Source of the DNA: an uncultured Candidatus Saccharibacteria bacterium
GTDB lineage: Bacteria; Patescibacteriota; CPR2; UBA1875; CAIMLA01
NCBI GenBank assembly: GCA_964594415.1
Contig: CAZQLQ010000006.1
Span: 1-54,140, forward strand
DNA length: 54,140 bases
Direction of reading: 5' to 3'
Positions within the stretch are counted from its first letter, which is position 1. Every line of letters starts with the position of its first letter. Position numbers and translations under genes: made by a program. The notes below the pieces were generated by a model. The model ran no database searches. It saw only the letters and a list, made by a program, of their open reading frames with translations, and was not told the DNA's origin. Positions 8,975 through 49,608 of this stretch are shown piece after piece.

Positions 8975-8980
8975 AAGGAA

Positions 8981-9014
8981 ATAATAACACAAAAAGAGGT
9001 ATTTCCACCTCTTT
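8981..9014 (-). promoter_or_regulatory. Terminator plus extended -10 promoter module, copy 2
   Basis: gaggt-ggaaat-acctc plus T-run, TG-T-TATTAT, 6 nt, ATG(8974). Confidence 0.7.
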
Positions 9015-9203: not shown

Positions 9204-9211
9204 TAATATAA

Positions 9212-9246
9212 AGAATAACACAAAAAGAGGCATTTCTGCCTCTTTT
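9212..9246 (-). promoter_or_regulatory. Terminator plus extended -10 promoter module, copy 3
   Basis: gaggc-agaaat-gcctc plus T-run, TG-T-TATTCT, 8 nt, ATG(9203). Confidence 0.65.
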
Positions 9247-9272: not shown

Positions 9273-9345
9273 TGGTGAACCCTACCCTCCTTCGTAATAC
9301 TACGGAACGGGCAGGCAGGACTTCCTCCAGAGGCGGATAAACTTC
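9273..9345 (-). pseudogene. Degenerate tRNA-Ala 3' fragment interrupted by palindromic inserts
   Basis: tggtgaaccctac-[cctccttcgtaatactacggaacgggcaggc]-aggact versus tggtggaccctacaggact at 9402. Confidence 0.55.
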
Positions 9346-9369
9346 TCGTCCTTAGCAAAATTAACCATC

Positions 9370-9391
9370 AAAAAACCCACCACGTTGGGTG
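9370..9391 (-). terminator. Terminator candidate downstream of the tRNA-Ala locus
   Basis: accca-acgtgg-tgggt hairpin plus TTTTTT on the minus strand. Confidence 0.55.
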
Positions 9392-9401
9392 AGTTGTTTG
9401 A

Positions 9402-9497
9402 TGGTGGACCCTACAGGACTCGAACCTGCCACCTCCTCGGTGCAAACGAGGCGCTCCCCGCCCGTACCGAACGGTACGTTCGGGCGGGTACCAGATG
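9402..9497 (-). pseudogene. 3' part of the outer (split) tRNA-Ala(TGC): D-loop with 32-nt insert, anticodon arm, T arm, acceptor 3' strand and CCA
   Basis: Reverse complement catctggta[32 nt]gagcgcctcgtttgcaccgaggaggtggcaggttcgagtcctgtagggtccacca; lacks nt 1-12. Confidence 0.9.
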
Positions 9498-9501
9498 GAC
9501 T

Positions 9502-9631
9502 TAATAAAATAGAGTTTGCTGAATAATTGGTGGACCTGACAGGACTCGAACCTGCTACCTCCTCGGTGCAAACGAGGCGCTCTACCAGGTGAGCTACAGG
9601 CCCGCGTTATTCAGCAAACTCTATTTTATTA
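9502..9631. repeat. Perfect 25-bp inverted repeat (9502-9526 / 9607-9631) enclosing tRNA-Ala
   Basis: taataaaatagagtttgctgaataa and its exact reverse complement. Confidence 0.95.
9528..9603 (-). tRNA. tRNA-Ala(TGC), intact inner copy
   Basis: 76-nt cloverleaf, G3:U70, anticodon loop TT-TGC-AC, encoded CCA. Confidence 0.97.
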
Positions 9632-9635
9632 TCAG

Positions 9636-9878
9636 TTATTCTTCGATAATTTTGTTTATAAACCTTCTACCAGCCGCCGATTTAAAGTACTTTTCTCTAA
9701 TCAGCGCCTCGTTCAAAGTTTCAACTTTTTCATAGTATTTAATTTTTAATTTACCCTTCATTTTAGAAGTAGTTTTTGTGTGACCTCCGTTATGCTCCTG
9801 CAACCTTCTTTTGAGATTGTTTGTGTATCCTTTATATAAGGTGCCGATTTCGTCTTCTAAGATATATACGTAATACAT
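9636..9878 (-). CDS. Small stand-alone GIY-YIG endonuclease (YhbQ/UPF0213-like)
   Basis: YYVYIL...LYKGYT-NL-RRL-EHN...YYE...EA-IREKYFKS; conserved Y/R/H/E residues present. Confidence 0.92.
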   Translation of the reverse strand: MYYVYILEDEIGTLYKGYTNNLKRRLQEHNGGHTKTTSKMKGKLKIKYYEKVETLNEALIREKYFKSAAGRRFINKIIEE

Positions 9879-9901
9879 GCTTGATATTTTACCACAACCT
9901 T

Positions 9902-9962
9902 AGGCGCTCCCCGCCCGTACCGAACGGTACGTTCGGGCGGGTACCAGATGAGCTAAGGGCCC
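9902..9962 (-). pseudogene. 5' part of the outer (split) tRNA-Ala: acceptor 5' strand and D arm with 32-nt insert
   Basis: gggcccttagctcatctggta[32 nt]gagcgcct; acceptor gggccct pairs perfectly with agggtcc of the 9402 piece; 9902-9950 is identical to 9449-9497. Confidence 0.9.
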
Positions 9963-10169
9963 TCATCGAAATCCGCTGTCAAGCTTCTTAAATAGCTTTC
10001 ACTATTTATTTCGCTTTTACGCGATTTCTCCTCTTCCCCTAAAAATCTACGATTTTTGGGGACCCCACAGAAACGAACTAAATTTCAAAAAATTCTTAAA
10101 ACCTTTTTGTACTTTCGCAACGCTTCCTTTTTCGCAAAAATTTATAATTTTTTGCGAGATGACTTATGT

Positions 10170-10198
10170 ATTTTACTCTTTTAAAAGGATTTTTTCAA
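10170..10198 (-). promoter_or_regulatory. Sigma70 promoter upstream of the split tRNA-Ala/GIY-YIG unit
   Basis: TTGAAA-17-TAAAAT. Confidence 0.6.
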
Positions 10199-10204
10199 GC
10201 TAGA

Positions 10205-10453
10205 TTACATTGCCCCAAGAGAACCGAGTAATCCGTCATAGATGTAATCAGCAACGCCAATCATCACCAGAATAGAGACAATAATCATTAGTGTGCCGAG
10301 AATTCTATAAAAAGTATAGGTCCCTGCCGGGCCAAGGTATTCCTCCGCAAATCCTATGCGAAAAGTATTATCAACAATTTGATGCGTATACGCAACAAAG
10401 CTTGTTCCGAGTGCTATACCAATAATCCCAAAGATAAACTTTCCTATTGTCAT
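10205..10453 (-). CDS. Conserved small 2-TM protein (AEEYLGPAGTY motif)
   Basis: 82 aa, SD aggagg; family recognised as common in CPR genomes (from memory). Confidence 0.75.
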   Translation of the reverse strand: MTIGKFIFGIIGIALGTSFVAYTHQIVDNTFRIGFAEEYLGPAGTYTFYRILGTLMIIVSILVMIGVADYIYDGLLGSLGAM

Positions 10454-10578: not shown

Positions 10579-10655
10579 TGGTGGGCGATCGAGGACTTGA
10601 ACCTCGGACCTCGTCATTATCAGTGACGCGCTCTAACCACCTGAGCTAATCGCCC
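10579..10655 (-). tRNA. tRNA-Ile(GAT)
   Basis: 77-nt cloverleaf, anticodon arm cgtca-CTGATAA-tgacg, encoded CCA. Confidence 0.97.
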
Positions 10656-10680
10656 GTGAAATCAATTTTCAACACATAAT

Positions 10681-10709
10681 ATTTTACCAAATAAAGGGCA
10701 ATATTTCAA
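10681..10709 (-). promoter_or_regulatory. Sigma70 promoter of tRNA-Ile
   Basis: TTGAAA-17-TAAAAT about 25 nt upstream of the tRNA. Confidence 0.65.
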
Positions 10710-10765
10710 CAAGTAAGTGAGATGTACAAAAAGTCCATCGAAAGTAATATAAGGTTTAAGATGGA

Positions 10766-11230
10766 GCAGTTCTCACATTCGTTCGAACAATAAACCCCTT
10801 GAAAAACTGTTCGTCCCGAGGACCGACTATTTTAAAAAGAAGTTCAGTTTTTCTTGAACTTTGCATCACTTTCTTTCAAGAGAAAGTGAGAAAAGAAATT
10901 AGATTCTTCGACTTCGCTCAGAATGACACTATTTTGTCATCCTGAGGGAGCGGAGCGATTCGAAGGATCTAGAGATCCCTCGACAGGCTCTCCGACGGAG
11001 TCCGACACGAACTCATCGGAGTCGTCGGACGGGATGACATAGGGAAGGAGTGGATCCCTGGAATGACGCCAGGGATGACCACAGCACTATAAAAAAGTGC
11101 TGGGCGAAGCAGAGAAATAGGTAGATCCCCGCGTGCGCGAGGATGACATAGGGAAGGAGTGGATCCCTGGAATGACGCCAGGGATGACAAAAAACATTAT
11201 AAAAGTAGTTCTCTGATTCGCCTCGAACAT
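10766..11230. repeat. Second mosaic cluster of REP-like palindromes
   Basis: Same units as 1-470; direct repeat of about 40 nt (catagggaaggagtggatccctggaatgacgccagggatgac) at ~11038 and ~11146; 10795-10839 matches 54087-54131 with one mismatch. Confidence 0.9.
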
Positions 11231-11264
11231 GATTGGCATTGTAAAGATGCGGGGGTAAACAATT

Positions 11265-11293
11265 AAAAAACTCCACACAAGGCGGAGTTTTTT
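11265..11293 (-). terminator. Bidirectional-type terminator just downstream of the 16S processing stem
   Basis: aaaaaactcc-acacaaggc-ggagtttttt. Confidence 0.7.
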
Positions 11294-11297
11294 CGGC

Positions 11298-12938
<1,641 letters not shown>

Positions 12939-49418: not shown

Positions 49419-49608
49419 TGATCGGGGCGGCGGGATTTGAACCCACGAGCCAATAGTCCCTTGTCTAGGACATAAAATAATATCTTGGTCGGGGATGCGA
49501 GACTCGAACTCACGACCTCAGCGTCCCGAACGCTGCGCGCTACCAACTGCGCTAATCCCCGATTTTAAATTATGTCCTAGACGCGCTACCGAGCTGCGCT
49601 ACGCCCCG
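49419..49608 (-). pseudogene. Outer tRNA-Pro-like gene whose anticodon arm is replaced by a 13-bp stem enclosing an intact tRNA-Pro
   Basis: Acceptor cggggcg/cgccccg plus A73, D arm gcgc/gcgc, T arm gtggg-TTCAAAT-cccgc; inverted repeat 49463-49475/49570-49582; ends in TCA, not CCA. Confidence 0.85.
49486..49561 (-). tRNA. tRNA-Pro(CGG), intact inner copy
   Basis: 76-nt cloverleaf, anticodon arm cagcg-TTCGGGA-cgctg, encoded CCA. Confidence 0.97.

Follow-up and report, generated by a model that had tools for sequence, protein, structure and literature searches.

How a bacterial genome comes to carry an essential tRNA gene broken in two, and what kind of element has lodged in the break, are the questions raised by a tRNA-Ala(TGC) gene of an uncultured Candidatus Saccharibacteria bacterium (assembly GCA_964594415.1, contig CAZQLQ010000006.1). 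The stretch of DNA analysed, hereafter the window, comprises 54,140 nucleotides; all coordinates refer to it unless a locus is named, and the tRNA-Ala locus, at positions 9402 to 9962, is read on the minus strand. Between the two halves of the gene lie a small gene of the GIY-YIG nuclease family and a second, complete tRNA-Ala. On balance, we favour the view that the locus is a compound scar left by a selfish element in the resident tRNA-Ala(UGC) gene, a scar produced in two steps and with the participation of a structure-recognizing nuclease.

Architecture of the interrupted tRNA-Ala gene

The locus contains two 49-bp segments that form a direct repeat (family D2), identical at 49/49 positions and spaced 453 bp start to start. 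Each of them has as its core a 32-nt hairpin, which occurs at just 2 sites in the 54 kb and finds 0 matches in 100 shuffles (Table 1). When the hairpin is removed, the two outer pieces join into a 76-nt tRNA-Ala(TGC) with a canonical cloverleaf and the G3:U70 pair, identical at 76/76 positions to the functional tRNA-Ala of a relative (L004, one of about 120 related loci, designated by L numbers, that were compared). The acceptor stem of this outer gene, GGGCCCT/AGGGTCC, differs from that of the inner one, GGGCCTG/CAGGTCC, by compensatory changes at pairs 6:67 and 7:66. As for the insert, its sole credible open reading frame (ORF) is an intact gene for an 80-aa GIY-YIG protein, accompanied by the complete inner tRNA-Ala, which scores 65 bits against the Rfam tRNA family. 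The identity of the repeats, the rebuilding of a tRNA-Ala from its outer parts, the compensated acceptor stems and the content of the insert had all been described in a first-pass annotation, and all of them hold; the perfect 25-bp inverted repeat that brackets the inner tRNA was absent from that description. The feature is real and biologically interesting, and the observation is confirmed.

A further 'tRNA' called by ARAGORN at 9402-9477 is spurious, half of the hairpin having been taken as acceptor; its 24 bits fall short of the gathering score, 29. Half a hairpin also serves as acceptor strand in another false ARAGORN tRNA, at L044:2270-2342.

Table 1. Features of the tRNA-Ala locus and of the nested tRNA-Pro locus in the window
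Feature	Coordinates	Strand	Basis and remarks
Outer (resident) tRNA-Ala, positions 1-21	9942..9962	-	Read from sequence; rebuilt gene matches L004
Hairpin copy 1, CCCGCCCG-AACG-TACCG-TT-CGGTA-CGGGCGGG on the minus strand	9910..9941	.	Sits between tRNA positions 21/22
Outer tRNA-Ala, positions 22-29 (end of 5' fragment)	9902..9909	-	Sequence and alignment with relatives
Direct repeat copy 1 (tRNA 13-21, hairpin, tRNA 22-29)	9902..9950	.	100% identity
23-nt spacer, including extended -10-like TGGTAAAAT (9894-9886)	9879..9901	-	Read from sequence
Gene for the minimal 80-aa GIY-YIG nuclease, ending in a TAA of its own	9636..9878	-	PF01541; profile and fold matches
Inverted-repeat arm upstream of inner tRNA	9607..9631	.	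Pair I1, 25/25 complementary; unique in window; 4 nt after ORF
Inner complete tRNA-Ala(TGC), presumably the functional copy	9528..9603	-	3 nt after upstream arm
Inverted-repeat arm downstream of inner tRNA	9502..9526	.	Pair I1; 1 nt after inner tRNA
Direct repeat copy 2, including hairpin copy 2 (9457-9488)	9449..9497	.	4 nt after downstream arm
Outer tRNA positions 13-21, second occurrence	9489..9497	-	Inside repeat copy 2
Outer tRNA-Ala, positions 22-76	9402..9456	-	100% identical to L004; contiguous with flank orthologous to L100/L102
Terminator-like hairpin and T run after outer tRNA	9364..9395	-	Kept in empty-site relatives
Nested tRNA-Pro locus	49422..49608	-	tRNA-Pro(CGG) 49561-49486; 13-bp inverted repeat 49582-49570 / 49475-49463
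Split degenerate tRNA-Pro-like host gene	5' part 49608-49577; 3' part 49468-49422	-	Acceptor halves CGGGGCG/CGCCCCG still match

A minimal GIY-YIG protein

The 80-aa protein matches the GIY-YIG family PF01541 with 54 bits (cut-off 22.6, E=2e-14) as a single domain covering residues 1-70, and the catalytic-core residues Y5, Y15, G17, R25, H29 and E62, invariant or nearly so in 37 homologues, are all present in it. No DNA-binding domain is joined to the nuclease domain, and a length of 80 aa leaves no room for one; NCBIfam holds no model for the protein. In a profile search of solved structures the first matches were the UPF0213 proteins EF2693 and BH0048 (E ~1e-11), followed by SLX1. The AlphaFold2 model (predicted local distance difference test score 89) gave a comparable picture, the top Foldseek matches being 1zg2, 1ywl and Slx1 6seh (template modelling score 0.67, root-mean-square deviation 2.5 Å), with UvrC at rank 27. 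Profile and model comparisons thus place the protein, a predicted nuclease, in the SLX1/UPF0213 branch and not on the I-TevI/UvrC side of the superfamily. The bacterial Slx1-like proteins represent the minimal stand-alone form of this fold, and had no assigned function in the superfamily survey of 2006, where a fusion with TrmH suggested a link to RNA (PMC1564403).

The same site in related genomes

Which of the two tRNA-Ala genes is native to the site can be judged from relatives. The five closest homologues of the nuclease (L120, L004, L001 and L002/L003, at 71-77% protein identity) share the gene order tRNA-Ile, membrane-protein ORF and tRNA-Ala locus. Presence and absence of the element vary at the orthologous site, which is occupied in the window, L001, L002, L004 and L120 and empty in L085, L087-L089, L100, L102 and others. 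The empty versions, found by scanning metagenome contigs with the membrane protein and also including L107, L111 and L113, have an equal gene order and an uninterrupted tRNA-Ala, with no nuclease gene and no hairpin. In particular, L100 and L102 share with the window the GGGCCCT acceptor and the downstream terminator (86.7% over 9456-9356); the orthology concerns the downstream flank only, the upstream intergenic region of the window finding no L100 match by BLAST. Since the empty sites are intact, and since the outer 3' part and the terminator are orthologous to L100/L102, the outer gene is the resident tRNA-Ala and the element an insertion. The earlier suggestion that the two outer halves belong to one gene is borne out in the same way. 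The inner tRNA-Ala, identical at 73/76 positions to the tRNA-Ala of L089, an empty-site locus of another lineage, and at 70/76 to the outer gene, is by its sequence affinities a foreign allele. At two of the empty sites (L085:2520-2545 and L089:2695-2720), the tRNA-Ala leader pairs with the first bases of the tRNA (GCCCGCAAATTTGCGGGC), giving a small palindrome across the 5' end.

In the five closest relatives the ORF occupies the identical site, fused to a tRNA of outer type and with no inner tRNA. Their canonical layout consists of a 5' fragment of tRNA-Ala (positions 1 to ~21-28) bearing 1-2 GC hairpins, a spacer of ~13-27 nt, the ORF and a complete tRNA-Ala. The latter starts inside the ORF, whose final codons read ..G GGC CCT TAG, so that the stop codon coincides with U8-A9-G10 of the tRNA. 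In L004, the second hairpin is identical to that of the window, and the fused tRNA is wholly of outer type and not a chimaera. Compared with these five loci, the window is collinear over the 5' fragment, the spacer and the ORF up to a break 5 codons before the ORF end. Beyond the break it has 42 extra nt, which supply the new ORF end and one repeat arm, then the inner-type tRNA, and finally 127 nt made up of the other arm and of outer positions 13-76 with the hairpin.

A probably compound locus and its variants

The arrangement found in the window, that is outer 5' part, ORF, inner tRNA and outer 3' part with a hairpin-containing direct repeat, recurs in four other loci. Two of them are at tRNA-Val genes: L010, with a 65-nt repeat at 92% identity, a spacing of 409 and the acceptors GGGTCCA/TGGACCC (outer) and GGGCGTT/AACGCCC (inner), and L048, with a 48-nt repeat at 88%, a spacing of 425 and, after the ORF, a decayed stub of the formerly fused tRNA 5' end. 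L008 is at a tRNA-Ile, carries another GIY-YIG subfamily and has a 37-nt repeat at 97% with a spacing of 428, while L021, at a tRNA-Thr, has an ORF fused with its inner tRNA, outer halves that pair as GCCAGCG/CGCTGGC and three hairpins in the outer 3' part.

These comparisons suggest a history in two steps. In the first one, shared with L004, L120, L002 and L001, the nuclease gene would have entered the resident tRNA-Ala and duplicated its 5' part, leaving a hairpin-bearing 5' fragment upstream and the gene itself fused to an intact tRNA. In the second one, specific to the window, a foreign-allele tRNA-Ala within its 25-bp inverted repeat would have replaced the end of the nuclease gene together with tRNA positions 1-12; subsequently, the resident copy, by then dispensable, would have received the hairpin and the sequence on either side of it, with the upstream fragment as template, and this transfer would account for the perfect 49-bp repeat. 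This history is the most economical because the ORF of the relatives is fused to an outer-type tRNA and because L048 keeps a stub of the fused tRNA, and the window most likely holds such a two-step compound. Of the first-pass proposal of a minimal selfish element without an integrase, the broken tRNA, the supplied replacement and the lack of an integrase stand, and the empty sites agree with it. The 453-bp repeat-bounded piece, conversely, was probably not one inserted unit but a compound, given the five relatives in which the fused nuclease gene is found without an inner tRNA.

A rather unlikely course of events, the one put forward in the first-pass annotation, would be a single step, in which a unit of ~404 bp (spacer, GIY-YIG gene and inverted-repeat-flanked tRNA-Ala) entered a hairpin-bearing tRNA-Ala. 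This could have taken place either through staggered cuts flanking the hairpin or cruciform, or through recombination of a 453-bp circle via the 49-bp hairpin segment, both routes duplicating that segment. The perfection of the 49-bp repeat speaks for it, and so do the repeat-bounded units of ORF and tRNA, 327-428 bp long and with the hairpin within the repeat, of L010, L048, L008 and L021; moreover, the inner and outer acceptor stems of L021 and L010 differ and are each internally complementary, as expected from a unit carrying its own tRNA. Nevertheless, an ORF fused to an outer-type tRNA, with no inner one, is what the five closest relatives have at this site, L048 retains the decayed remnant of a fused tRNA 5' end, the repeat boundaries vary between loci, and the target would have to have been a hairpin-disabled, non-functional tRNA-Ala.

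The same four loci bear on the suspicion of a mis-join at the 49-bp repeat, brought about for example by strain variants or by the threading of a small circle into the chromosome. In favour of such an artefact are the length of the perfect repeat, below that of typical reads, and the metagenome-type assembly. We consider it highly improbable, because the same architecture is present in independent assemblies with imperfect repeats that are not collapsible k-mers (L010 92%, L048 88%, L008 97%); furthermore, without the insert the sole tRNA-Ala(UGC) of the genome would be disrupted by a hairpin.

The inverted repeats deserve separate mention. In the window, L010, L048 and L008 they flank the inner tRNA with a sequence unique to each locus; taken together, the leader and the first 4-5 nt of the tRNA are reverse-complementary to the trailer in L008 and L048. 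One may speculate that the inverted repeats arise by template switching across the acceptor-stem palindrome. Inverted-repeat-flanked tRNAs with no ORF also occur inside split tRNAs, specifically tRNA-Met in L034/L042, tRNA-Val in L033 and tRNA-Pro in the window (Table 1). This last locus contains no nuclease gene and no GC hairpin between 49422 and 49608, and may be a non-autonomous relative of the tRNA-Ala element. Other layouts depart further from the canonical one: a complete tRNA, the ORF and then a hairpin-bearing copy (L044); the ORF, a full-length copy with two hairpins and then an intact copy (L075); two hairpin-bearing fragments in succession (L054); and tandem hairpin-bearing fragments with no ORF (L015). 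Many of the hairpin-bearing copies are decayed or contain several hairpins.

A family of nuclease genes abutting tRNA genes

A scan of one genome per species returned more than 554 relatives of the nuclease, 80 of which were examined. The homologues come almost all from assemblies of Patescibacteria (the candidate phyla radiation, CPR), the family being found mainly in this group and also in Bacteroidota; the homologues thus point to a Patescibacteria genome as the probable origin of the window. An ORF was recognisable in 83 loci, and in 50 of them its stop codon falls within a tRNA on the same strand, against a background of ~0.006 expected per locus; its place is exactly at tRNA positions 8-10 in 40 of these 50. 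In 63 loci a tRNA starts within 150 nt of the ORF end. The occupied tRNAs span 18 isoacceptors, with several element copies per genome. Upstream of the ATG, an exact copy of the first 8 nt of the tRNA is present at a distance of 54-119 nt in 36/54 loci, and each of the 35 5' fragments dissected is broken by at least one GC-rich hairpin. Some ORFs cluster by tRNA type in a weakly resolved neighbour-joining tree of the ~74-aa proteins. The survey of small GIY-YIG homologues, a check put forward in the first-pass annotation, reveals a strong enrichment beside tRNAs and tRNA fragments.

Taken together, an element of this family consists of a stand-alone GIY-YIG nuclease of ~80 aa, a working tRNA directly after it and one or more disabled, hairpin-bearing copies or fragments of that tRNA; its nuclease stop is usually U8-A9-G10 of the working tRNA, and its hairpins sit most often in the D-loop, at 21/22.

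A second, longer GIY-YIG subfamily (86-91 aa, C-terminus ..IISDGIIK..) is found at tRNA-Ile(GAT), in L001:1776-2192 and L008:1290-1870. The design matches, with a 5' fragment bearing a hairpin, the ORF and the tRNA, and the hairpin sequence differs: those of L008 are AT-rich, with CCCG/CGGG or CTCCG/CGGAG stems. In a Bacteroidales metagenome-assembled contig (CAVUJY010000019.1, L083:1-2300) there are at least 7 tandem units of 327 bp, each with a GIY-YIG ORF running on into a T-arm piece of a tRNA, which the family hairpin interrupts (GGTTC, hairpin, GATTCC). By analogy, this seven-unit array looks like the product of a nuclease-driven segmental amplification.

The hairpin as hallmark of the family

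The hairpins share an invariant 8-bp outer stem, CCCGCCCG/CGGGCGGG, an invariant 4-nt AACG bulge and a variable 5-bp inner helix. The inner helix covaries at 5/5 pairs, with changes on both sides; 92% of the cells are paired, and 0/500 shuffles reach the observed score. For counting, a family-specific pattern was used, since a generic search for GC-rich palindromes also caught acceptor stems and terminators. By this pattern, the hairpin lies no more than 160 nt upstream or 330 nt downstream of the ORF in at least 49/64 loci of Patescibacteria and in at least 12/21 of other phyla, mainly Bacteroidota, while 111 kb of syntenic control loci contain none and the 54-kb window just two copies. Exact copies of the window's 32-mer are found next to ORFs with only 45-72% identity, at tRNA-Val, at tRNA-His and in the Bacteroidota locus L043, and the spacers next to identical hairpins cannot be aligned. 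Because the hairpin is identical beside divergent ORFs while the spacers are unalignable, it is either constrained or repeatedly re-copied; on the strength of this conservation, it is a hallmark of the family and not an incidental feature.

At least 57/73 hairpins are located at recognisable tRNA junctions, 39 of them at 21/22, 7 at 9/10, 3 at 13/14 and 8 in the T-loop, the other 16 being mostly nested or offset. They break the tRNA sequence precisely and with no target duplication (e.g. GGTA, hairpin, GAGC), always in the dispensable tRNA copy and never in the working one, and in L005 and L033 they are nested within the loops of other hairpins. Relative to ORF and tRNA, 32 of 70 instances have one orientation and 29 the other. 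That both orientations occur about equally argues for a role of the hairpin in the DNA rather than in the transcript.

The orientation also counts against the least probable of the readings considered here, which operates at the RNA level. In this case the hairpin would be an intron-like insert or a handle for trans-joining, the GIY-YIG protein an RNA-processing endonuclease and the outer tRNA functional. Several facts are compatible with it: the outer halves are undecayed (76/76 identical to L004) and a palindrome can pair two RNAs, joining positions 21 and 22 in a geometry similar to that of archaeal split tRNAs; in addition, the TrmH fusion had hinted at an RNA link for bacterial Slx1-like proteins (PMC1564403). 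On the other hand, an intact, hairpin-free copy always adjoins, both orientations are equally common relative to transcription and many hairpin-bearing copies are decayed or have multiple hairpins. Moreover, in 41/64 loci of Patescibacteria the hairpin is seen only upstream of the ORF, typically in a 5' fragment with no 3' partner. Rfam has no family for the hairpin or the inverted repeat, whether at gathering scores over the whole window or at an E-value threshold over 9300-10250, and at gathering scores the window yields tRNA and 16S only, with no known intron or structured RNA; hits to MIR781 and HPnc0260 are sub-threshold artefacts of the AT-rich inverted repeat.

A very unlikely explanation, somewhat less so than the previous one, dispenses with mobility altogether: a local tandem duplication of the tRNA, neutral GC palindromes in the dead copies and a GIY-YIG protein acting as a housekeeping repair nuclease, whose gene happens to be a neighbour of tRNA genes. 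It can appeal to the existence of tandem copies with no ORF (L015) and to the fact that stand-alone SLX1/UPF0213-type proteins are widespread and uncharacterised (PMC1564403). It does not account for the variable presence at orthologous sites, the 18 occupied isoacceptors with several copies per genome, the foreign allele of the inner tRNA, or a hairpin that is absent from the 111 kb of controls and the rest of the window and identical across phyla next to unalignable spacers.

Hairpins outside this context were also recorded. At L060:1072-1107 a 36-nt family hairpin lies in an open reading frame with no tRNA-like flanks, and it may be an in-frame insertion into a protein-coding gene. In viral contigs the pattern gave 19 matches, nearly all due to chance in GC-rich DNA and none near a tRNA or GIY-YIG gene. 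Two of them, L123:12837-12869 and L134:12244-12279 (IMG/VR), look like true family hairpins, outside tRNA and with no GIY-YIG gene within 800 nt, and the hairpin of L134 is identical to the L073/L083 variant.

How the element might persist and move

For the selfish element with a two-step history, a mechanism can be sketched. Since the nuclease is devoid of a DNA-binding domain, it would probably recognize its targets by their structure, these being the hairpin or cruciform and the arms of tRNA genes, which resemble hairpins, and it would nick or break the DNA at stem-loop junctions. Recombinational repair would then copy hairpin, nuclease gene and tRNA, generating the partial duplications. 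With hairpins spoiling the other copy, the host would depend on the tRNA linked to the nuclease gene as its sole working one, and could not easily lose the element. Where gene and tRNA are fused, cutting of the tRNA by RNase P would deprive the mRNA of its stop codon, which, speculatively, might limit the amount of nuclease.

A bolder version, to which we give less than even credence, sees here a new class of mobile elements, in which a GIY-YIG protein reduced to its catalytic domain recognizes its cognate bulged hairpin and the arms of tRNA genes. In such a class, hairpins planted at stem-loop junctions would disable the resident tRNA, and the unit of ORF and tRNA would spread as a poison and antidote at an essential tRNA gene; solo hairpins and inverted-repeat-flanked tRNA cassettes, such as the tRNA-Pro of the window, would be moved in trans.

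Several points weigh against the favoured reading. The two-step history is drawn from five relatives whose proteins are 71-77% identical; an alternative to it, though a less parsimonious one, is that a single insertion took place and the relatives later underwent a loss, and a perfect 49-bp repeat is equally expected from a single insertion of Campbell type or by staggered cuts. Nuclease activity, cleavage site and transposition are what we infer, the link between protein and hairpin is one of co-occurrence and conservation, and the structure is that of an assembly. In addition, 15/64 loci of Patescibacteria have no family hairpin by the pattern used, a few hairpins are found outside tRNA sequence (L032, L060 and two viral contigs), and for the inverted repeats around the inner tRNAs template switching is the sole, speculative, explanation.

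Comparison with known systems

SegB, the free-standing GIY-YIG homing endonuclease of T-even phages and the best experimental parallel to the mechanism sketched above, is a phage-encoded protein of about 200 aa or more, with a DNA-binding part and a lineage on the I-TevI/UvrC side; to our knowledge, it is associated with no conserved hairpin module, no overlap between stop codon and tRNA and no disabled tRNA copies. The element described here, in contrast, encodes an 80-aa catalytic domain of the SLX1/UPF0213 branch and resides in cellular genomes. The likeness lies in a GIY-YIG gene among tRNAs and in the duplications. Specifically, the segB gene is situated among tRNA genes, its product cuts inside tRNA genes and is tied to many isotypes (PMC2330249; PMC13096335), and it drives a recombination-dependent amplification of segB and tRNA (PMC13096335), to be compared with the duplications in our loci and with the seven-unit array of L083. 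As a candidate Seg-like homing gene, the element shows the presence/absence pattern and lacks the DNA-binding domain. By analogy, its mode of action would be that of a free-standing homing-endonuclease gene equipped with a substitute for the gene part it displaces. The homing model, in which the element's own allele should be immune to cleavage, has the difficulty that the adjacent functional tRNA is intact, so that any target confined to the tRNA would stay open to attack.

SLX1 and the UPF0213 proteins (YhbQ-type; 6seh, 1zg2, 1ywl) provide the best profile and fold matches and are equally minimal, with no auxiliary domains. Branched and hairpin-like DNA is what SLX1 cuts, in keeping with a hairpin or cruciform as target, but SLX1 differs in that it works with SLX4 in repair. 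For the UPF0213 proteins, searchable papers report no link to tRNA genes, hairpin repeats or mobility.

In CPR bacteria, GIY-YIG genes have been described, sparsely, within rRNA-gene insertions that are not introns and that occupy the top or base of stem-loops (PMC11270868). These insertions resemble our element in the bacterial group, in the location of a GIY-YIG gene inside structured-RNA genes and in the stem-loop ends; they differ in that they concern rRNA and not tRNA, and no hairpin module, duplication of gene parts or replacement gene is described for them (PMC11270868). By analogy, the two may represent the same biology on different substrates.

Most bacterial islands duplicate the 3' end of the tRNA. 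In the window, instead, no tyrosine or serine recombinase lies between the repeats, and the repeat consists of the internal positions 13-29 with the hairpin. The integrase islands depend on such recombinases and measure kilobases, whereas our element has none, with a duplication that affects the 5' or an internal part of the tRNA and a unit of 0.3-0.45 kb. What is shared with tRNA-targeting elements, such as the archaeal one of Caldiarchaeum with its tRNA-Thr fragment and recombinase, is an interrupted tRNA that regains its function from a copy of the displaced part carried by the element, a fragment being left behind (PMC3293823).

With regard to the hairpin, the comparison is with other small palindromic elements, and the resemblance is one of form. 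The element in the window has a bulged imperfect palindrome (AACG, with a covarying inner helix) and no target duplication, as have IS200/IS605 and REP/RAYT. Known elements of this sort (IS200/IS605, REP/RAYT, GC clusters and the palindromic elements of Rickettsia) have short imperfect palindromes with conserved bulges and no target duplication, and occur in either orientation, sometimes nested or inside genes. These hairpin or palindrome systems rely on HUH transposases or have no assigned enzyme, and we know of none tied to a GIY-YIG protein or to tRNA stem-loop junctions. The GC clusters of yeast mitochondria, for instance, are small GC-rich palindromic mobile elements (PMC4478555). No HUH (Y1) transposase gene is present in or near the element in the window. 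A classical miniature inverted-repeat transposable element with terminal inverted repeats and target site duplication, a group I or other intron, an integrase island, a split functional tRNA and a misassembly were all considered and set aside.

The literature open to search, which leaves subscription journals outside, holds no description of tRNA-linked minimal GIY-YIG genes with hairpins. A widespread family of nuclease and hairpin living on tRNA genes has apparently gone undescribed so far. If confirmed, it would give the orphan stand-alone SLX1/UPF0213-type proteins of bacteria a biological setting and a candidate DNA substrate, and would show by what means bacteria with some of the smallest known genomes put up with a parasite of their essential single-copy tRNA genes: the damaged gene is duplicated or replaced by the parasite, whose reading frame overlaps it. 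There would also be consequences for annotation, with false tRNA calls across hairpins, fragments that mimic split or intron-containing tRNAs, small ORFs that run into tRNA genes and wrong automated tRNA counts in such genomes. Finally, an 80-residue nuclease with a 32-nt hairpin would be an attractive minimal system for the study of structure-directed DNA cleavage.

Genomic setting and expression

On the minus strand, the locus is preceded by the 16S rRNA gene (12860-11401), tRNA-Ile(GAT) and an ORF for an 82-aa membrane protein, and no 23S gene is found downstream of 16S, tRNA-Ile, membrane ORF and tRNA-Ala (window 10579-12860 and 9402-10453). This layout, unusual for an rRNA operon, is conserved in many metagenome contigs as regards the order tRNA-Ile, membrane ORF and tRNA-Ala.

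Promoter-like matches are not enriched near the locus (2 found, 3.0 expected from shuffles), the one at 10198-10170, from which the first-pass annotation had the element transcribed, agreeing at 10/12 positions. In the window 7 nt separate the extended -10-like box of the spacer from the start codon of the nuclease gene, and a similar box, TGnTAAnAT, is found at equal distance from the ATG in L004 and L002. This box near the ATG, with similar ones in the two relatives, suggests that the element may have its own promoter and a nearly leaderless nuclease mRNA. Further downstream, a terminator-like module, AACACAAAAAGAGGnATTTCnnCCTCTTT, is present twice, at 8979-9014 and 9210-9245, after two successive small genes, the two copies being 89% identical.

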